Shown: positions 24,164-62,005, numbered from the stretch's first letter. The stretch: 64,000 bases of DNA from Planctomycetales bacterium (GCA_030612725.1 JAUWNJ010000010.1:32837-96836); one strand, 5' to 3'. A program made the numbers and translations. Notes: a model not told the origin generated them from the sequence alone.

Positions 24164-24170
24164 AATAATC

Positions 24171-24290
24171 AGCAGTCAGCAATCAGCAAAAGATAAAAAA
24201 ACGACGAAGAAACAAATCAGCAATCAGCAGTCAGCAATCAGCGAATCAGTGTTCTTTTTCATCTTTTGCTGACAGCTGATTGCTGATAGC
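24171..24290. repeat. Intergenic composite repeat: tandem cagcaatcag units with an imperfect long inverted repeat (tcagcaatcagcaaaagat ... atcttttgctga(cagctg)attgctga)
   Basis: Read directly from the sequence. Arms are at 24177-24195 and 24262-24287. The interior contains repeated aatcagca units. Confidence 0.5.
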
Positions 24291-24301
24291 TGACCGCTCT
24301 T

Positions 24302-28774: not shown

Positions 28775-28925
28775 GATAGCAGAATTACAGGGATTTTTGT
28801 TTTTGCTGAAAAAAGAAGAAGAAAAAGGAGAAAGATAGCGGGATTATGGGGATTACTGGATTATAGGGATTTTCTTTTTTGTTTTTGTCCTCTAATCTCA
28901 AAATCCCTGTAATCCTGCTATTCTG
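28775..28925. repeat. Structured intergenic element: about 20-nt inverted repeat (agcagaattacagggatttt / aaaatccctgtaatcctgct) enclosing purine-rich tandem gggattat-like units
   Basis: Read directly from the sequence between the gcvT-SHMT stop and gcvH. Confidence 0.4.
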
Positions 28926-35134: not shown

Positions 35135-35157
35135 TATCCTGTCCGACTTTAATGATG

Positions 35158-35260
35158 GGTGCCATGCTTTCGCCCGCAGCGCAGCGGAGGGCGTAAGCAT
35201 GTTGTGGCGTAAATCATGCCTACACGCTTCGCTGCGCTGCGCGTGAAGGCATGGCACCCT
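35158..35260. repeat. About 28-nt imperfect inverted repeat (gggtgccatgctttcgcccgcagcgcagcg / cgctgcgctgcgcgtgaaggcatggcaccc) forming a long intergenic hairpin
   Basis: Read directly from the sequence between gcvPB and lpd. Confidence 0.5.
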
Positions 35261-35277
35261 GCACTAGGGATACTGTT

Positions 35278-36651: not shown

Positions 36652-38334
36652 ATGTCGAAATTGATTTATTCAGACCTCGGACGCAAATCCTACGAATCGG
36701 CGTTGGTGATTCAACGCCGGTTACTGGAAGAGGTAAAGGCCGACGAGAACTCACCGGCGTATCTCCTGCTCCTCGAGCACGACCCGCCGGTTATAACGCT
36801 TGGTCGGAGCGCCGAGAGCGAGCATCTCCTTGCCTCGCCGGAGCGCCTGGAGCGCGAGGGCGTCGAGGTCCATAAATCCGCTCGCGGCGGGGATGTAACC
36901 TACCACGGTCCGGGACAACTGGTGGGATACCCGATTATGCAAGTTGCAAGTCGGGGAAGGAGCGTCCACGGGTACGTCCGCGACCTGGAAGAAGTCCTCA
37001 TCCGCCTGTTGGGACGCTTCGGCCTGAAGGGCCGACGGCGTAAGGGCCTCACCGGCGTATGGGTCGGCGACGAGAAAATCGCCGCTATAGGCGTAGCCGT
37101 CAGTCGATGGGTCGCCTGGCATGGGTTCGCGCTGAACGTCTCGACGGACCTGTCGCATTTCGATTTCATCGTGCCCTGCGGCATCGACGGGTGCAAAGTA
37201 ACCAGCATGGAGAAACTTCTCGCATCAGAAGTCTCAATTCAGGAAGTGAAACAACAGTTGGTAGAATGTCTGGTCGAGGTGTTCGGATTCGAACCTGTAG
37301 GCTGGAACGGAGCGAAGCGGAGTCCCACCTCAATTTCTACTCCGTCCCAGCCTACAAGTCGCGGACGGTTTCCTGTGTGGTTGCGTCGGCGTATTCCGCC
37401 TGCCGGCAGGAGCGCCGAGGTGCGGCGACTACTGGCCGATTTGAAACTCGAAACGGTCTGCTCCAGTGCGAACTGCCCGAACATGTCGGAATGTTTCGGT
37501 CGCGGCACTGCTACATTTATGATCCTCGGAAACACCTGCACCCGCTCATGCCGATTCTGCGCGGTTCCGACCGGAAAACCCGCAATGCCGCGAGATGACG
37601 AACCGGCCGCAGTGGCAGAGGCATCCGAGCGGCTTGGCCTGAAGCACGTCGTAATTACTTCAGTAACCCGCGACGACTTGCCCGACGGCGGGGCAGGACA
37701 CTTCGCCAAAACCATCCGCGCCGTCCAGGCCCGCCTTTCGCAAACCACAATAGAAGTCCTCACGCCCGACTTCGGTGGCGACGAAGCCGCAATTGACACC
37801 GTCCTTGCCGCCCGGCCTGACGTTTTCAACCACAATATCGAAACCGTTCCGCGTTTGTATTCGCATGTCCGCCCGCAGGCCCGGTACAAACGCAGCCTCG
37901 ACGTGCTCAAATATGCAAGCAGCAGGCTGGCCCGGGGTGGAGCAGGTAGGCTGGGCCAGAGCGGAGCGGAGTCCCACCTTCCTTATGCAAACGAACAAAA
38001 TGCAGAACAAAGGTGGGACTCCGCTTCGCTCCGGCCCAGCCTACGGAAACTCTTTACCAAGAGCGGTCTGATGGTGGGTCTGGGCGAAACTATCGACGAA
38101 ATCCGCGACGTGATGCGGGATTTGCGCAAGGCAGGGTGCAACATTCTGACCATCGGCCAATACCTCGCGCCGTCGCCGGAGCACGTACCGATAGCCCGAT
38201 TCGTCGAACCGTCCGAATTTGACGCCATGCGAACCGAAGCGCTGGCGATGGGCTTTACCGCCGTCGCCGCCGGACCCTTCGTTAGAAGCAGTTACCGCGC
38301 TGAAGAGGTTTTGAAAAAGCAAGCGGCCTTATAA
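36652..38334 (+). CDS. lipB-lipA: Fused octanoyltransferase (LipB) and lipoyl synthase (LipA) single ORF, carrying in-frame palindromic element insertions
   Basis: N-terminus matches LipB (VITLGRS...[19 protein letters not shown]). The C-terminus matches LipA ([29 protein letters not shown] ... [22 protein letters not shown] ... [11 protein letters not shown]). The junction and an internal loop contain copies of a repeat element. Confidence 0.65.
37946..38044. repeat. 99-nt palindromic REP/MITE-like element (35-nt arms gtaggctgggccRgagcgRagcggagtcccacctt) inserted in-frame inside the LipA-coding region
   Basis: Arms at 37946-37980 and 38010-38044 are reverse complements with 2 mismatches. 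The encoded extra peptide is roughly [37 protein letters not shown], located between conserved LipA blocks. Confidence 0.6.
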
Positions 38335-40298: not shown

Positions 40299-43100
40299 TC
40301 ATTCTTTTATCGGCGTCAGGTACATGGTGCCGAGGTTTTCCGGGCTGTAGAAGTATCGCACCGCGCCGGCCCAGCTTGATGCTTCGGACTCGGCGGTTGC
40401 GAATCGCGTGAAATTGATTCCCCACAACGGTTCGGTCCCGTCCGGGCCGAAGGCTTTCAGCGGGATCGCCAATTCGACGACCCAGAGTTTTTTATCTTTG
40501 GCGACGGCGGAACGGACCCGTACAGGCCAGGGCTTGACTCTTGCCGGTTCCGCGCCGATACCGCGCTCGGCGAGGATCACGCCATTGCACTTTACCACGA
40601 GATGATACAAATCGGCGGCGCTTTTTGCCTTCCGGCCCGGATCGATAATCAGTTCCACCATGTCCTCACCGGCGGCGAGGAACTGCTCGTATCGGACGAT
40701 GTTATCGGCGCGGGCGTGGAGTCTGTCCATTTTCGGCTCGTCGCAGCGGAACGCCACGTACAGGTTTTTATCGTCGCGCGTAACAAAAGCGGATGTCCGG
40801 CGACGGGCAAGCCCTTTTCCGCCCCTGCCCCGTCGGCCCAGCACGATAAAGGCTCCGGCGGTATTTCCTGCTCGCAGCGGCCAATCGTCAAGATTCCCGT
40901 CAATGACAATCGCTTTGGCGACGGTTCCGGCCCGGATGAACGGAACGCAGGCGAGGAGGTCTTCGGTTCGGCCCGGGGTGGTGGTCATCGCCAGTGGGAT
41001 ATTTATTTTCGCGTCTGAACCCGTTGGGATACCGACGCCTTCGGCGGCAAGGGTCAGGACGGTAAGTTCGCTTCCTTTGAGTCGTTTTTGGATTCGGGCG
41101 GTTGTCGGTTTCCACCCTGCCGGAAGATCGGCGATTCGCAACTCCACATCAACCGGATTGGTCTGTTCGTTGTAAAGTTCCGCTCGGACAACAGCGGCGA
41201 AACGCCCGTGGCCAAGCATTTTCACGCGCGAACGAATCCGCTCGACACGAACCCGGCAGGTAAGTTGGCGAAGTTGTTTCCAGGCGAGTTGTTCGGACAG
41301 GAGTTGGCGACGGGAAACATTTTCAGGATGGACGGCCGAAAGGACTTCTTCGGCGAGGAGTCTTCGGGCGGATGTCCAGACTTCGCCGTCGGCGACCCAT
41401 CCGCGAAATCTCGCGTCGAGGTGATGGTCCCCGGCTGCGTCCAGGCAGGCATAATGGACCATTGTATCGATCATTACCCGCGCGACGGCGGCTCTTTGCC
41501 TTTGTCGCAGCAACCAGAGATAGGCGACATCCTGCAAACCCCGACGGAGGCGCTTGAGGCGAACCGAAGGAAAAACCGTATCGCCGTCAGAGGTCTTACC
41601 CGGATAAAACAAGCGGTCTTCGTTACCGGCCTGCTTTGACCAGTTGAGCACTTCGGGTATGAAGACGCCGGGGCAGTCGTATTTCATCGCTATCCATGCC
41701 AATGCGCGAACGTCGGCGGGCGAACTCAACACGCCGCATCCGCCCAGGTACGGAGGCCTGCCCGGACGAAGCCAGAGACCGGCCAAACGGTGGCTTCGGG
41801 CGAGTCGTTTCGCATCGGATGGGTTAACCATATGCGCCGGTGGCGCGTACATATCGGCCAACGATGCAAAATCCTTCGGAGGGTTCCCAAAACGTAGCAC
41901 GGGCGGGACGCCCGTGTTACGTAGCATGGGCGGGACGCCCGTGTTACGCCGAGCCGGTGGAAGTTCGGTCAAAATCGGCGTTTCAGGTCCGGTCAAACGA
42001 ACCAGACGCGCAAGAGATGAATAACGCTCATAAGCCCGTTGCCCGCTCGAATCGGACCTCGGCCAGACGAACAGGCGGTCGCCGAACCCGATGCTCTTGA
42101 AATGCTCGACCGTCCCAGCCAGAACAGCCCCGGCGGTCTTGCGATAGGCATCCGCAGCGATCCCGCCGTAATTCGCCGGTTCAGGCCAGCCGGTACGGAA
42201 TGGCGCAGGCCAGGCCGATACGCCGACGCGGTCGTCAAAGGCCGAGCCGTCGAGGTATGGCTTGACGATGTTGTCGTAATCATCCCACCGAAGCGCCACC
42301 GCTCCGGACATGTCACGTTTAATGGTCGGATGGATGGACTTATCGAACAGGTCCACGCGATGCTCGTGCGCCAGACGCATCAATCGGCGGATAACAGTCA
42401 GGCCCGCGCGGACATCCTCTTTCGCCGCGTCGAGACGGACGGGAACTGCTCCGCCAAAGGTTGAAAAAATCGTCTCGTAACCAAATCCGCCCATGCACGC
42501 GACCGGCTTGGCGTCGGGAAGGACGAAGTCGTACACCTTCAGCGCCACCTTCGCTCGCGTCAGGCCTCGGCTCGACGAGGCCGTAATTGCGCCGACGTAA
42601 TCGCCCGGAAGCCTGTCACGCCGGACGGCTACATCCACCCAGACCGCCAGCCGCTCGCCGGGACCGACGTCAAACGAATCGGACGGCTTCATCGGTTGCA
42701 ACGCGTCGTAGAACCTTACCGGCCTGACGGGTGCGTCGGTCAGGAGGAGATACCATGCCGGATAACGCTCAATCGCCACAGGCAGCATTCGGAACAATTT
42801 AACGTTCTCGACGCCGATCTTCCGCCCGCCGAAGCCGGTAAGCGGGCTGACGGACAGTTTTACTTCTTCAAGCCCGTCGGCAGGAGCGTCCAGAACCAAC
42901 TGAAAACTGACCGTTTCGTTGGCGGCTGAAAAGAGATTGACGCTCCGCGAATCAGCGTCCCATACACTGCTGACCCTGGACGCCTGCGTCTGCTCGGTCA
43001 GGTGTACCATGTCCCCCGCCACCCAGAGGTGCCCCGGGCCGGGCCGACCACAGCCGGCGAGGCTCAGGCACGCAATCAATAATGTCAGTCGTCGCAACAC
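40299..43100 (-). CDS. Large (933 aa) hypothetical lipoprotein
   Basis: Signal peptide plus lipobox (LSLAGC). Contains an internal in-frame tandem duplication caused by a 27-nt palindromic element. Confidence 0.45.
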   Translation of the reverse strand: MLRRLTLLIACLSLAGCGRPGPGHLWVAGDMVHLTEQTQASRVSSVWDADSRSVNLFSAANETVSFQLVLDAPADGLEEVKLSVSPLTGFGGRKIGVENVKLFRMLPVAIERYPAWYLLLTDAPVRPVRFYDALQPMKPSDSFDVGPGERLAVWVDVAVRRDRLPGDYVGAITASSSRGLTRAKVALKVYDFVLPDAKPVACMGGFGYETIFSTFGGAVPVRLDAAKEDVRAGLTVIRRLMRLAHEHRVDLFDKSIHPTIKRDMSGAVALRWDDYDNIVKPYLDGSAFDDRVGVSAWPAPFRTGWPEPANYGGIAADAYRKTAGAVLAGTVEHFKSIGFGDRLFVWPRSDSSGQRAYERYSSLARLVRLTGPETPILTELPPARRNTGVPPMLRNTGVPPVLRFGNPPKDFASLADMYAPPAHMVNPSDAKRLARSHRLAGLWLRPGRPPYLGGCGVLSSPADVRALAWIAMKYDCPGVFIPEVLNWSKQAGNEDRLFYPGKTSDGDTVFPSVRLKRLRRGLQDVAYLWLLRQRQRAAVARVMIDTMVHYACLDAAGDHHLDARFRGWVADGEVWTSARRLLAEEVLSAVHPENVSRRQLLSEQLAWKQLRQLTCRVRVERIRSRVKMLGHGRFAAVVRAELYNEQTNPVDVELRIADLPAGWKPTTARIQKRLKGSELTVLTLAAEGVGIPTGSDAKINIPLAMTTTPGRTEDLLACVPFIRAGTVAKAIVIDGNLDDWPLRAGNTAGAFIVLGRRGRGGKGLARRRTSAFVTRDDKNLYVAFRCDEPKMDRLHARADNIVRYEQFLAAGEDMVELIIDPGRKAKSAADLYHLVVKCNGVILAERGIGAEPARVKPWPVRVRSAVAKDKKLWVVELAIPLKAFGPDGTEPLWGINFTRFATAESEASSWAGAVRYFYSPENLGTMYLTPIKE
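41892..41947. repeat. Tandem 2x 27-nt palindromic element (acgtagcaYgggcgggacgcccgtgtt) inside coding sequence
   Basis: Two adjacent copies give the peptide repeat RNTGVPPMLRNTGVPPVL in the minus-strand ORF. It belongs to the same family as the hairpins at 424-447 and 22577-22598. Confidence 0.55.
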
Positions 43101-47875: not shown

Positions 47876-48703
47876 ATGAGTATTATCAAGATCGCGCTGG
47901 CGCAGGTATCGGCGACGGACAACAGAGAAGAAAACCTCCAAAAAGCCTTCAGCCTCATGGAGCAGGCGAAAGACCAGGACGCCTCAATCATCTGCTTCCC
48001 CGAAATGGCCTTCGACCCGTTCTTTCCGCGAGTCCGCACCGACAAGCGATATTTCGACCTGGCCGAACCGATTCCCGGACCGATGGTCGAGAAGTTTCAG
48101 GAAAAGGCAAAGCAGCTATCCCTGGCCACCGTCATAAATATGTACGAACTGGCTGCGCCGGGAGAATACTACGATTGCTCGCCGGTGATAGACGCCGACG
48201 GCGCCCTGCTTGGCATCAGCCGGATGATGCACATCGCCGAACTACCCAATTACAACGAAAAATTCTACTATTGGGAAGGCAACACGGGCTTTCCGGTTTT
48301 CCAGGCGGGCGGCGCGAAGATCGGGATCGCCATCTGCTATGACCGCCACTTCCCCGAACAGATGCGGGCGCTGACGCTCGGCGGAGCGGAGATTATCCTC
48401 GTCCCGACCGCCACGTCCACGCCGGCGCTAAAGCACATCTGGCACGTCGAGATGCAGGCGGCCTCAATAGCAAACCAGGTGTTCGTAGCATTGAACAACC
48501 GGGCGGGAACCGAGGGCGAAATGACCTTCTTCGGAAGGAGTTTCGTCGTCAACCCGCGCGGCGAGGTTATCGCGCAGGCCAAGGAAAACGAAGAAGACCT
48601 GCTGGTGGTCGAACTGGACCTCTCGCTTATCGAGCAGACCCGACGGGACTTACCATTCCTCCGCGACCGCAGACCCGACGCCTATGGCCCGCTGATTGAG
48701 TAG
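47876..48703 (+). CDS. Carbon-nitrogen hydrolase (nitrilase superfamily)
   Basis: IALAQV...ICFPEMAF... and the Glu/Lys/Cys arrangement (GIAICYDRHFPE) typical of CN hydrolases. Confidence 0.75.
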   Translation: MSIIKIALAQVSATDNREENLQKAFSLMEQAKDQDASIICFPEMAFDPFFPRVRTDKRYFDLAEPIPGPMVEKFQEKAKQLSLATVINMYELAAPGEYYDCSPVIDADGALLGISRMMHIAELPNYNEKFYYWEGNTGFPVFQAGGAKIGIAICYDRHFPEQMRALTLGGAEIILVPTATSTPALKHIWHVEMQAASIANQVFVALNNRAGTEGEMTFFGRSFVVNPRGEVIAQAKENEEDLLVVELDLSLIEQTRRDLPFLRDRRPDAYGPLIE

Positions 48704-48734
48704 GCTGGGCCGGAGCGAAGCGGAGTCCCACCTT
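48700..48734. repeat. Single-arm copy of the gtaggctgggccggagcgaagcggagtcccacctt element, immediately after the nitrilase stop and followed by a T run
   Basis: Identical to the arms in lipA (37946.., 38010..) and at the lipB-lipA junction (37297..). Confidence 0.5.
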
Positions 48735-52032: not shown

Positions 52033-52200
52033 CGATTTCGCGCTCGCTGGTTTTTAAATCACTTGGATTGCGAAAATAGGCAACCACGGCACTATCCGTC
52101 GGCGAGATGGATGTTCAATTGCAGATTCATCGTGTTCTGAGTCGATCATCAATCGGTATGTGCGTCAAGAGGGAAATCAGCATTTCGCGCGATATCTTCC

Positions 52201-52249
52201 CGCTTCCTACCCTTCGGGTCTGAGCCTCAGGGTCGAAGGGTAGGAAGCG
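52201..52249. repeat. Perfect 16-bp-stem hairpin cgcttcctacccttcg ... cgaagggtaggaagcg with an internally palindromic loop
   Basis: Read directly. Lies within the repeat-dense noncoding region. Confidence 0.55.
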
Positions 52250-52288
52250 GGTATCACCGGGCTTTCGATTATCCCTTGATCGCGCTGT

Positions 52289-52426
52289 GTTCGCATCTGC
52301 GCGCGCAAACGCGAACGTAAAAATCGGGGAGATGAAAAATTCCAAAAAAACTTTTCCCAAGGCCGCCAAGGACTTATGCCGTCGCTATCCGTTTTGTGTT
52401 CGCCTTTGCGCGCGCAAACGCGAACG
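52289..52426. repeat. Two copies of the palindromic motif gttcgcNtYtgcgcgcgcaaacgcgaac (52289-52316 and 52399-52426)
   Basis: Read directly. Each copy is itself a hairpin (gttcgc/gcgaac arms around gcgcgcgc). Confidence 0.5.
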
Positions 52427-52446
52427 CAAAAGATAATATAGAGGAC

Positions 52447-55671: not shown

Positions 55672-55717
55672 TGCACTGCTCCTTTTTTCAATTCAAGATG
55701 AACGTTTTACAGAATTA

Positions 55718-55808
55718 ACCACAAAGGGCACAAAGAACACAAAGGCAATAAAGAATATTTCAATTCCGTTCTTTGTGTTCTTTGTGCCCTTTGTGGTTCG
55801 TTTTTTTA
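55718..55808 (+). terminator. 27-bp perfect inverted repeat (accacaaagggcacaaagaacacaaag / ctttgtgttctttgtgccctttgtggt) with a 25-nt loop, followed by tcgttttttta
   Basis: Read directly. Lies between the tRNA-Asp 3' end and the DegT start. Its orientation as a terminator for the + strand is puzzling because no + strand gene lies upstream. Confidence 0.45.
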
Positions 55809-55810
55809 AA

Positions 55811-55884
<74 letters not shown>

Positions 55885-59433: not shown

Positions 59434-60567
59434 TTGTGGTTTCACCGACAGTTGTCTAATCTGACATCCATGAGCGCCCGTCCCGTGAAACTCGATATCT
59501 ACCGCACAGCGATTCCCATGCGGTCATTCGAGCACGCCGCCGCTACCAGAAACCTGGCCGAAGCCGTTGTCGTCCGCCTGGAAATGTCCGACGGTTCCGT
59601 CGGTTGGGGCGAGACGCTCCCGCGAAAGTACGTTACCGGCGAAACGCTCGAAACCGTCCCCGACGACATTGAGCGAATGTCTCCGTTAAATCCGGCGGAC
59701 GAATCTGTCGATGCGTCCGTCCCGAAACCCGCCGCCGCCTGCGCGCTGGACCTTGCCCTCGTTGATGCAGACGCGAAGGCGGAAGGTAAGTCTCTGGGCG
59801 GACCTATTCCGCACAACATTCGCGTCAGCGGCGTACTCGGCTCGGCAGACCCGGCCAGAACGTCAAGACGCCTTCGAATGATGCGTCTCTATGGTCTGCG
59901 GGATTTCAAACTCAAACTCGGTTTCGGCGACGACACCGATACGGAGAACCTTCGCGTCGTACACAAGCAAATCGGAAAGGCGATCCGCGACCTCGAATAT
60001 ACGCTTCGCGTGGATGTCAACGGCGGGTGGGCGGCAGAGGAGATTCCGGATCGCGTCGCCGCACTTAAACCCTTCGGTGTCTGCGTTGTCGAGCAACCGG
60101 TATTCGGGCCACCGGAAACGCTTATCGAACTTGCCCAACGATGCGAACTGCCGCTGATGGCCGATGAATCATTAATCACAATCGCCGACACCAATAAGTT
60201 TGTCCATGCTACCGGAAAAAAAGTCTGGATGAACGTCCGCCTCAGCAAAAGCGGCGGAATCGGTCCGTGCGGCAAAATTGCCGAAGCCGCCGCCCAAGCC
60301 GGCGCACCGTTCGTCATAGGATGTATGGTCGGTGAGAGCGGAATCCTTTCCGCCGCCCAGCGCGTGCTGTTGGCAAAAATCCCCAAACCAAAATTCGTCG
60401 AGGGAAACTACGGAAAATTCCTCCTTGCCGACGACCTGACGAAACCAAGCCTCCGCTTCGGATATGGCGGAAAACTCAAAACCCTGACCGGTCCGGGCCT
60501 GGGCGTGACAGTGAGCGAACGAAAAATCACACGCTACGGAACGCTGATCAAAACCCTCCATGCATGA
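59434..60567 (+). CDS. Enolase-superfamily enzyme (mandelate racemase/muconate lactonizing enzyme family; dipeptide epimerase/OSBS-like)
   Basis: KLDIYRTAIPMRSFEHAAATRNLAEAVVVRLEMSDGSVGWGE and the metal-ligand spacing (DVNGGW, VEQP, DES). Confidence 0.7.
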   Translation: MWFHRQLSNLTSMSARPVKLDIYRTAIPMRSFEHAAATRNLAEAVVVRLEMSDGSVGWGETLPRKYVTGETLETVPDDIERMSPLNPADESVDASVPKPAAACALDLALVDADAKAEGKSLGGPIPHNIRVSGVLGSADPARTSRRLRMMRLYGLRDFKLKLGFGDDTDTENLRVVHKQIGKAIRDLEYTLRVDVNGGWAAEEIPDRVAALKPFGVCVVEQPVFGPPETLIELAQRCELPLMADESLITIADTNKFVHATGKKVWMNVRLSKSGGIGPCGKIAEAAAQAGAPFVIGCMVGESGILSAAQRVLLAKIPKPKFVEGNYGKFLLADDLTKPSLRFGYGGKLKTLTGPGLGVTVSERKITRYGTLIKTLHA

Positions 60568-60612
60568 ACAATGCGTAGTCTGGGCCGATAAGTCGAAGAT
60601 GCGCCGTGGCGT

Positions 60613-60669
60613 GCCCACCTTTTGTCTGTGAACGTAAGGTGGGCCTCGCTCCGCTCGACCCAGCCTACC
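60613..60669. repeat. Variant copy of the cccacctt/aaggtggg palindromic element (right arm full-length: aaggtgggcctcgctccgctcgacccagcctac)
   Basis: Read directly. Related to the element at 37946, 38010 and 48700. Confidence 0.45.
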
Positions 60670-60683
60670 GCTGATTGCACAAG

Positions 60684-60753
60684 GAGGTTGATTTATTCGT
60701 GTAATTCGTGTAATTCGTGGACTACTGTATTCGTGGAATTCGTTTGAATTCGT
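60684..60753. repeat. About 8 tandem 9-nt units (T/G)AATTCGTG immediately upstream of metK
   Basis: tattcgtg taattcgtg taattcgtg gactactg tattcgtg gaattcgt ttgaattcgtg taattcgtg, ending about 26 nt before the metK GTG start. Confidence 0.55.
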
Positions 60754-60778
60754 GTAATTCGTGGAAAAGGAGCAACAC

Positions 60779-62005
60779 GTGCCTGCATTAGGTCAAAACA
60801 TCCCGAAACATCTTTTCACCAGTGAATCCGTTACCAAGGGACATCCCGACAAGGTTTCCGACCAGATTTCCGACGCCATTGTGGACTTGCTGATAGGGGC
60901 CGACCCGAAGGCGCACGTCGCCTGCGAGACACTGGTAACCACCGGGCTGGTTGTTCTGGCCGGCGAGGTTACAGTGCATAATCTCAAGGGCGAAAAAGCA
61001 CTCCTGTCGGCTGAAGAGACCGCCCGGCGGGTAGTCCGCGACATCGGATACGACGATTCTTCCACCGGCTTCGACTACCGAAGTTGCGCGGTGATACGAA
61101 CACTTCACAACCAATCGTCCGACATCGCGCGCGGCGTTGACAGGAAGAAGAAAAAGGACCAGGGCGCAGGCGACCAGGGAATAATGTTCGGCTTCGCCTG
61201 CCGGGACACCAGGGAGATGATGCCGCTTCCGATCCAACTGGCCCACCGTCTGACCGCCCGTCTGACCGAGGCGCGCGAAAGCGGCGAGGTCCGCTGGCTG
61301 CGACCCGACGGAAAAAGCCAGGTAACTATCGAGTATCGCGGAAACACGCCCACCAAATTATTAACCGTCGTATTGTCAACCCAGCACGACGAAAGCGTAA
61401 TAAACCCGCGAACCGACACAATGTCAAAAGAGGCCAGGGAAAAACTTAAAACCAAAGTCGTCAAACCGGCCATCATGGACGTTTGCCCGAAGTTGTGGTC
61501 AAACAGGATAAAATATCACATTAACCCCACCGGAAAGTTCGTCATCGGCGGTCCCAACGGAGATACCGGACTGACCGGAAGGAAAATCATCGTCGATACC
61601 TACGGCGGGCGCGGAAGCCACGGCGGAGGGGCGTTCAGCGGGAAAGACCCGTCAAAGGTTGACCGCTCCGCATCATACATGGCAAGGCACATCGCCAAGA
61701 ACGTAGTCGCCGCCAGACTCGCCGAAGCCTGCGAGGTGCAGTTGTCCTACGCCATCGGCGTAGCAGAACCCACCAGCGTCCTGGTCGATTGCGGCGGGAC
61801 CGAGGCCGTCGATCATCGCAAACTCGCAAAGGCTGTTCGTGATACCTTCCCGCTGACGCCGGCAGAGATAATCGACTACCTCAACCTGCTGCGTCCGATC
61901 TACGAAGAGACCGCCCGTAACGGGCACTTCGGAAGGACCGGAAAAAACTTCACCTGGGAAAAGACAAACAAGAGCGGTCAATTGCGAAAGGCATGCGGAC
62001 TGTAA
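60779..62005 (+). CDS. metK: S-adenosylmethionine synthetase
   Basis: [60 protein letters not shown] start at 60779 preceded by aaggag. Confidence 0.9.

Follow-up and report, generated by a model that had tools for sequence, protein, structure and literature searches.

REPs that end in a GTAG tag have been catalogued in more than 80 species, the PVC superphylum included (Di Nocera, De Gregorio and Rocco 2013, PMC3733652). As defined in Table 1 of that survey, they are 20–40 nt long and consist of an unpaired terminal GTAG and an imperfect palindrome with a stem of 5–13 bp and a loop of 2–20 nt. The survey describes them as RAYT-associated and predominantly arranged as head-to-head dimers. It also reports some that lie wholly inside known genes, with dimers encoding 20–30 aa, and TAG stop codons that are donated by GTAG REP termini (PMC3733652). 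REPINs are mobilised by RAYTs (Bertels and Rainey 2011, PMC3116915). Palindromic repeats are further known as RPEs (Ogata et al. 2000), which these sources describe as in frame in many unrelated functional genes (PMC3733652, PMC10969869), while MITEs such as ERIC, BOX, Nezha and Correia make in-frame fusions (review PMC10969869).

Here, we analyse a 99-nt palindrome in a 64-kb stretch of Planctomycetales DNA, hereafter the window, together with related loci (L numbers). The initial annotation, made from the sequence of the window, placed this element in a lipoyl-synthase coding region. It does lie inside the LipA part of the gene, but the ORF encodes a LipB-LipA fusion rather than plain LipA (table 1). 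Pfam domains LplA-B_cat (aa 14–206) and Radical_SAM (aa 290–424) were identified, along with NCBIfam matches to lipoyl synthase (388.9 bits, in two stretches) and LipB; the score for TIGR00510 was 361.8 bits, above the cut-off of 310. The LipA part retains the radical-SAM CX3CX2C motif (C296/C300/C303), the N-terminal CX4CX5C motif of the auxiliary cluster (C270/C275/C281) and the C-terminal RSSY (R545-S546-S547-Y548), and the modelled protein has the LipA fold. The fusion architecture is common to more than 100 Planctomycetota homologues, and the gene sits in a conserved gcvP-lpdA-lipBA neighbourhood. We considered, and rejected, the idea that the element created the fusion, since fused genes are widespread and the fusion is also present in relatives whose linker is empty. 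The frame is open over 560 codons, the element bringing no stop codon, and pairwise dN/dS against close orthologues is 0.09–0.22 in the LipB and LipA segments that flank the insert; by these sequence measures, the host gene is functional. It is also a recombination mosaic among the four relatives compared below.

Table 1. Coordinates of the lipBA gene and of the REP family sites in the 64-kb window.
Feature	Position	Strand	Remarks
LipB-LipA fusion ORF, host of both elements	36652-38334	+	560 aa; Pfam and NCBIfam matches
Internally deleted REP doublet, in frame in the LipB/LipA linker	37297-37355		59 nt; left REP intact, right truncated
Degenerate copy of left junction and REP head (GCAGGCTGGCCCGG...)	37922-37945	+	24 nt; directly 5' of main element
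Left REP unit	37946-37980	+	GTAG tag, GCTGGGCC/GTCCCACC stem, 13-14-nt loop, TT extension
Spacer between the two REPs	37981-38009	+	29 nt
Right REP unit, inverted	38010-38044	-	reverse complement GTAGGCTGGGCCGGAGCGAAGCGGAGTCCCACCTT = family consensus
REP singlet, same family	48700-48734	+	overlaps end of CN_hydrolase ORF
Diverged REP doublet, same family, intergenic	60575-60668		between ORF 59434-60567 and ORF 60761-62005

Repeat finding reproduced the palindrome at 37946–38044 as first described, with two 35-nt arms, mismatched at positions 13 and 19 only, around a 29-nt spacer; the arms lengthen to 44 nt at 89% complementarity. Judged by its sequence anatomy, the element is an inverted doublet of GTAG-tagged REPs (a REPIN), from a family that is associated with RAYTs in related MAGs. 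The left arm reads GTAGGCTGGGCCAGAGCGGAGCGGAGTCCCACCTT, and its loop bears GCGGAGC where the family consensus and the right arm bear GCGAAGC. Over its first 33 nt (through CCCACC), the reverse complement of the right arm is identical to the REP singlet at 48700–48732. Homologous spacers are present in the L001 linker copy and in the lipA copies of both L001 and L002. The 99-mer folds at −78.3 kcal/mol against a mean of −29.4 for dinucleotide shuffles (z = −14.1; 0 of 200 shuffles as good). Rfam identified two tRNAs in the window and no match at the element.

The element amounts to 33 codons and lies in frame; two of its three reading frames are open, and the third holds the TAG of the GTAG tag. 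The earlier statement that a 33-codon element preserves the frame holds as far as frame and stop codons are concerned, but the net insertion relative to an empty orthologous allele is 40 codons, because the degenerate 24-nt copy that precedes the element adds a further 7–8. This degenerate copy is absent from L001, L002 and L004. The lipA copy was confirmed, but the initial annotation had missed another one that occupies the LipB/LipA linker within this ORF; it folds at −31.4 kcal/mol (z = −6.1). Outside lipBA, the stop codon of the CN_hydrolase ORF (47876–48703) is the TAG of the singlet's GTAG tag.

The family unit can be written GTAG-GCTGGGCC-(loop)-GGCCCACC, with loops of 3–24 nt and modes at 4 and 13, which is the anatomy of a GTAG-tagged REP; REPs of the family can also be represented as GTAGGCTGGG[AC]CGGAGCGAAGCGGAG. 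The head of E. coli REPs is GTAGGC, the same as the head here. In 124 units taken from the window and from related loci, a variable position in the stem is C:G in 86, A:T in 9 and G:C in 7, and the occurrence of three Watson–Crick pair types indicates compensatory variation that supports a hairpin. The cores GCGGAGTCCCACC and GTAGGCTGG occur 5 and 7 times in the window (0.16 and 0.21 expected, respectively). We scanned one genome per species (185,579 species) with the pattern GTAGGCTGGGCC-N(3-25)-CCCACCTT and obtained 90 exact-pattern stretches. Of these, 77 are in eight Planctomycetota MAGs, with at least 27 in the fragmentary MAG CSMAG_1454 and 20 in CSMAG_1105, while the remaining 13 are scattered and compatible with chance. 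Copies of the family are thus many and dispersed. They are also mainly extragenic: 82 of 102 sites in the related loci and the window have no long open frame across them, and approximately 5% fall in real genes. The window's own genome, sampled over 64 kb, contributes four sites. That the palindrome is a mobile repeat, as the initial annotation proposed, is borne out by these dispersed copies and by its presence or absence at the same site among orthologues, although its membership of a GTAG-REP/RAYT family had not been recognized.

Both singlets and inverted doublets occur, the latter frequently enough, and with the folding into a larger hairpin seen for the window doublet, to match the head-to-head dimers of GTAG REPs. 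A total of 34 doublets were matched, approximately 30 of this family; four belong to an unrelated Sulfomarinibacteraceae locus (L059). Since spacers differ among most of these doublets, the family looks, on sequence, more like BIME-type head-to-head REP dimers than a uniform REPIN population. Intragenic copies are not confined to lipBA: in-frame members of the family also sit in an SDR gene of L013, whose adh_short_C2 match extends across the REP, in an M56 peptidase gene of L083 and, probably, in a GT2 gene of L019. We rejected L033, L090 and most other sites spanned by a frame as chance open frames or chance motif matches.

Evidence for an associated transposase comes from related genomes. 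A strict HUH...YxxNP motif scan of ORFs in the window and related loci yielded no RAYT, but a relaxed scan uncovered one in L073 (1640–2245, minus strand, 202 codons), which matches NF047646, 'REP-associated tyrosine transposase', at 173 bits (cut-off 80). It is flanked by REPs of the family (GTAGGCTGGGCC...GGCCCACC), and its homologues are abundant in Planctomycetota. The RAYT homologue P0141 in L099 has inverted REPs on both sides; the downstream one (GTAGGCTGGGACGGAGCGAAGCGGAGTCCC) is identical over 30 nt to the REP of the window and L002, while the upstream one has a slightly different head (GTAGGTGGGG...). A further RAYT, in L098, has a close variant of the family REP at its flanks. A tblastn search with the L073 protein gave no further match in the window and the loci searched; neither the 64 kb of the window nor the loci of its three closest relatives, each a part of a genome, yielded a RAYT. 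From the related MAGs we infer a RAYT link for the window's genome, and transposition into the lipA site would probably have been RAYT-mediated, by analogy with other GTAG REPs.

The resemblance to published GTAG REPs is therefore close. As in the survey's description, a 5' GTAG tag is combined with a short imperfect stem-loop, dimers are inverted, copies are mostly extragenic and, in related MAGs, RAYTs are flanked by REPs; a minority of copies lie in frame inside genes and TAG is donated as a stop, here at 48700 (PMC3733652). The differences lie in the host clade, here uncultured Planctomycetota MAGs, and in the fragment of the window's own genome, where no RAYT was found. The family is placed by its anatomy rather than by a sequence match to one of the 24 published families, and lipA is not among the host genes given as examples in the main text of the survey, which concern DNA synthesis and repair (e.g. 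uvrA and uvrB; PMC3733652). Compared with REPINs, most dimers here have unrelated spacers and do not form a homogeneous population.

Alignment with close relatives, including one without the insert, was the check proposed at the outset. The three closest orthologues are 76–81% identical to the window protein by BLASTP (83–86% in a MAFFT alignment), and closest orthologues differ exactly at two sites, the lipA loop and the linker. Both sites are empty in L004, although the genome it comes from (CSMAG_432) carries the REP family elsewhere. L002 and L003, the latter from an independent archive (ENA), have the 99-nt doublet at exactly the same lipA site and an empty linker, while L001 has a 68-nt short-loop version in lipA and 1.5 elements in the linker. 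Comparison of filled with empty alleles revealed no target-site duplication at the lipA site, nor at the linker, where the empty allele reads GAGCCTG^CCGTTCC and the filled one GAGCCTG-TAGGCTGG...CCAGCCTA-CCGTTCC. The lack of one is in line with Y1 transposition of the IS200/IS605-like type. RAYTs belong to the HUH/Y1 enzymes, are relatives of the IS200/IS605 transposases, and act on single-stranded hairpin DNA without duplicating the target.

Spacers are homologous among the three lipA copies of the window, L001 and L002, unlike those of the approximately 30 other family doublets, each of which has its own. As far as spacer sequence goes, this shows that the three lipA copies in the clade descend from one insertion event, not three. 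In L001, the copy in the linker has the same arms as that in lipA and agrees with it at 17 of 21 spacer bases, which suggests that the whole doublet was copied within the gene, spacer included.

These comparisons bear on whether the insert is real. The source is a MAG, repeats can mislead assemblers, and a second lipA could be present elsewhere in a genome of which the window covers 64 kb, so the palindrome might mark a misassembly or a decaying copy of the gene. Yet the insert is found at the same site in three more independent assemblies, two from NCBI (L001 and L002) and one from ENA (L003). The 560-codon frame is open with intact catalytic motifs and a dN/dS of approximately 0.1, and the gcvP-lpdA-lipBA context is conserved. 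We consider a pseudogene or assembly artefact extremely improbable.

To judge how the protein accommodates the extra residues, we used an AlphaFold2 model based on 116 homologues, which has a mean pLDDT of 89.5. Confidence falls below 50 only at residues 219–236 (the linker copy) and 434–456 (the lipA copy). The LipA domain of the model superimposes on 5EXK with a TM score of 0.93 and an rmsd of 1.4–2.0 Å, and the LipB domain on 2QHS with a TM score of 0.95. The lipA insert lies between the helix at 412–432 and the strand at 468–475, where the alignment with Mycobacterium tuberculosis LipA (5EXI) breaks, approximately 44 query residues standing against four in the solved chain. The insert is therefore predicted to be a disordered loop that leaves the LipA fold preserved, and from the topology of the TIM barrel this helix-to-strand loop would face away from the radical-SAM cluster. 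The earlier reading of the insert as a tolerated extra loop is in keeping with the low-confidence loop in the model, the intact ORF and the purifying selection on its flanks.

Length variation among homologues points to the same two places. From the Leu of the SL motif to the Lys of KSG, the loop is most often 12 aa in the 116 fusion homologues and 50 aa here; the figure of about 12 residues previously given for E. coli was imprecise as stated, but 12 aa is indeed the commonest length in this set. Loops of at least 30 aa occur in 12 of the 116, and linkers range from 9 to 94 aa. Insertions of at least 10 aa are present at the linker in 50 sequences and at the lipA loop in 18, and in at most four at any other internal position. 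A metagenome scan of lipBA loci returned mostly non-fusion LipA with short loops, and a long loop was seen in none of approximately 60 scorable loci.

We think it probable that the element is a REPIN of a small-clade Planctomycetota family that inserted in the lipA part of the gene and survived there as a near-neutral passenger, because its length is in frame, the frame used is free of TAG and the loop is tolerated by the fold. The family would have been mobilised, probably by a RAYT, and one copy would have landed in the lipA part of the fusion gene. It would have survived because the net insertion is a multiple of three, because it is read in a frame that bypasses the TAG of the GTAG tag and because the site is a length-variable loop between helix 412–432 and strand 468–475. 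The extra 40 residues would then form a disordered excursion that leaves the radical-SAM barrel and the cluster motifs intact, the sibling copy would sit in the linker as the other length-tolerant part of the protein, and the mRNA would gain a predicted, very stable hairpin. The insert would have been filtered, not recruited, by selection. The simplest reading is a survival filter, in which insertions land anywhere and only those that are in frame, stop-free and fold-tolerant persist. We infer neutrality for enzyme function, as we do any effect at the RNA level.

One observation sits uneasily with simple neutrality. Between the window and L002, 92 of the 99 nt of the element are the same (93%; 7 differ), compared with 80% in flanking lipA (Fisher p = 4e-4) and 62% at third codon positions (p = 1e-9). 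A purely neutral passenger of the age of the gene would not show such conservation, so another cause is needed: candidates are a recent transfer of the allele, conversion by other copies of the REP and constraint on the hairpin. The last of these would fit an insert recruited by selection, with the hairpin in the ORF or the encoded peptide serving as a site for RNase III or for ribosome pausing that adjusts LipA output or helps co-translational folding and Fe-S loading, or as a docking loop on the protein. Such a role would account for both its retention and its conservation. The RNA hairpin is predicted to be extremely stable, the element and its flanks (159 nt) folding at −99.4 kcal/mol (z = −10.5), and the original suggestion of an mRNA structure that affects translation draws its support from such predictions. 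Conservation of the arms, however, is expected in any REP homogenised by copying or conversion, and the close relative L004 has neither insert and an equally constrained gene. Nor is the peptide conserved: dN/dS inside the lipA insert is 0.4–0.55, L001 encodes a different and shorter peptide, and the modelled pLDDT of the insert is below 50. Most homologues manage with a 12-aa loop, and the element showed no signal resembling a terminator or a promoter. Recruitment also gains something from the non-homologous palindromes described next, but on balance we regard it as improbable and retain the near-neutral passenger as the preferred reading.

The same sites are occupied by other palindromes in two other lineages. 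The long LipA loop of L095 is encoded by a different palindrome of 81 nt (z = −7.0) and that of L096 by one of 69 nt (z = −12.4), and the L095 linker holds a palindrome of 143 nt (z = −9.7). An apparent palindrome in the loop of L097 was discarded as not significant (z = −1.8). Across lineages, palindromes of at least three different families are found in the LipA loop, and the residue within the loop at which they are inserted differs. The long loops seen in these other lineages are encoded by non-homologous palindromes, rather than being the homologous loop that would mark a lineage feature instead of an insertion. As a separate observation, the two ends of the palindrome in L096 are found again in the window, in an intergenic palindrome at 35158–35258.

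Recurrence of this kind raises the question of whether the two sites are targeted, the transposition machinery or recombination between REPs preferring them through, for example, pre-existing hairpin-prone sequence or an older REP remnant, so that insertion rather than survival is biased. Two of the four family sites in the window, and both of those in the 16-kb L001 locus, lie in the lipBA gene, and the degenerate copy of a REP head adjoins the main element. REPs have been reported as targets of further insertions, in background cited in the survey (PMC3733652), and the different palindrome families in the loop of other lineages would fit a preferred site too. On the other hand, spacer homology reduces the three lipA copies to one event, the empty alleles share no motif between the two sites and the insertion residue varies by lineage. 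These two sites are the only ones where the protein family accommodates changes in length, so a survival filter suffices. A targeting bias seems to us unlikely, and survival of a near-neutral insert is again preferred.

A broader proposition, which we rate as doubtful, is that the LipA loop and the LipB/LipA linker are recurrent landing pads in Planctomycetota, where a hairpin is either useful or targeted. If so, the hairpin could pace translation between the halves of the Fe-S enzyme or set the ratio of LipB to LipA output; alternatively, the site might be favoured by single-strand transposases. Intragenic REPINs would then be a selected feature, not tolerated junk. This reading draws on the conservation of the element above that of synonymous sites in its host gene, and on the different palindrome families found in one loop across lineages.

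Other classes of intragenic repeat are less close relatives. RPE inserts, like those described here, are thought to sit at fold-compatible positions, but RPE-1 is approximately 150 bp and encodes a conserved peptide, RPE copies are mostly intragenic and their hosts, as these sources describe them, are obligate intracellular alpha-proteobacteria (PMC3733652, PMC10969869). In the present family, approximately one site in twenty lies in a real gene and the peptide is not conserved. Given the lack of both a sequence relationship and a conserved peptide, we see only a resemblance of behaviour to RPEs, not membership. MITEs are likewise small, non-autonomous repeats that occasionally lie within ORFs without breaking the frame. 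They differ in that they duplicate their target site and have terminal inverted repeats that stem from DDE insertion sequences, whereas the element here is built of GTAG-tagged REP units and neither filled site shows a target duplication.

In-frame insertion of this kind had been thought uncommon when the element was first noted. The insertion is indeed tolerated, but intragenic in-frame REPs were already documented in the GTAG REP survey (PMC3733652). With these established precedents, the phenomenon is one already described in other bacteria, and the present case is set apart by its host clade, its host gene and its sequence. Knowledge of REPs and of lipoyl synthase is left unchanged; the only features that might lead further are that unrelated palindromes have repeatedly occupied the two sites and that the element is more conserved than its surroundings. 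What the locus offers is a natural experiment, in which four closely related genomes have an essential radical-SAM gene that is empty, singly occupied or doubly occupied by REP doublets. It shows a route by which 'extragenic' palindromes enter coding DNA, through a frame without TAG, a net length divisible by three and a loop that the fold tolerates. It further locates two permissive positions in LipB-LipA fusions, which could serve for protein engineering, and extends RAYT-associated GTAG REPs, intragenic copies included, to uncultured Planctomycetota.

The fused LipB-LipA gene (lipBA) is a recombination mosaic among the window and the orthologous loci of three close relatives (L001, L002 and L004), as revealed by sliding-window identity. 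Between the window and L001, identity reached 96% in some 90-nt stretches and was 71% in others. Over the gene's 3′ third, L001 and L004 formed the closest pair of the four.

The surroundings of lipBA are also a hotspot of small mobile cassettes. Three relatives (L002, L004 and, from ENA, L003) carry a MazE/PIN toxin-antitoxin pair downstream of the gene, and in L002 and L004 a HicB-like gene precedes the lpdA-like gene, on the side facing gcvP. At this neighbourhood, the window and L001 have neither the pair nor the HicB-like gene.

Features of the window and of related loci, by position
Feature	Locus	Position	Setting
lipBA	window	36652-38334	
MazE/PIN pair	L002	6793-7427	
MazE/PIN pair	L003	2181-2815	
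MazE/PIN pair	L004	6589-7223	
HicB-like gene	L002	3352-3561	
HicB-like gene	L004	3232-3441	
REP singlet	window	48700-48734	3′ end of carbon-nitrogen hydrolase ORF 47876-48703
Diverged REP doublet	window	60575-60668	between enolase-superfamily and metK-like ORFs
CGTGTAATT-like tandem repeats	window	~60700-60760	
Palindrome	window	35150-35266	
Unrelated palindrome/inverted repeat	window	24168-24298	
Unrelated palindrome/inverted repeat	window	28776-28921	
Unrelated palindrome/inverted repeat	window	52199-52251	
Unrelated palindrome/inverted repeat	window	52286-52428	
Unrelated palindrome/inverted repeat	window	55703-55812	adjoins tRNA gene 55811-55884 (minus strand)
GTAGCATGGGCG...CGCCCATG-type unit	window	~425-450	
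GTAGCATGGGCG...CGCCCATG-type unit	window	41921-41945	
In-frame REP	L013	1814-1846	short-chain dehydrogenase gene
Three in-frame REPs	L083	3841-4019	BlaR1/M56 peptidase gene
Probable in-frame REP	L019	1255-1355	glycosyltransferase gene

Palindromic repeat families are abundant in the window. The GTAG-tagged REP family of the lipBA doublet recurs as a singlet overlapping the carbon-nitrogen hydrolase ORF, whose stop codon is the TAG of the GTAG tag, and as a diverged doublet followed by short tandem repeats. A second GTAG-tagged REP family appears to be represented by the units of GTAGCATGGGCG...CGCCCATG type. Distinct from the REP family is a palindrome with 52-nt arms (81% complementary), which lies just upstream of, and overlaps, the first ATG of the lpdA-like ORF preceding lipBA. 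Its termini, GGTGCCATGCTT, are found again in L096, a locus from another lineage, within the palindrome occupying the LipA loop there, and once in a further locus, L065.

Copies of the lipBA REP family also lie in frame in genes of other loci. In the dehydrogenase gene the REP is spanned by the Pfam match; in the peptidase gene three REPs separate N-terminal segments, and in the glycosyltransferase gene the REP, probably in frame, is upstream of the GT2 domain.

Alignment of Planctomycetota LipB-LipA fusions revealed linkers of up to 94 aa, many of which contain repeat-like peptides (for example HGQDARGTHGQDAHATR, EDCGLRIADCGL and IRNPQSAIRNPQSA; P0019, P0022, P0035, P0040 and other homologues). 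The repetitive character of these peptides suggests that LipB-LipA linkers include translated copies of other dispersed DNA repeats.
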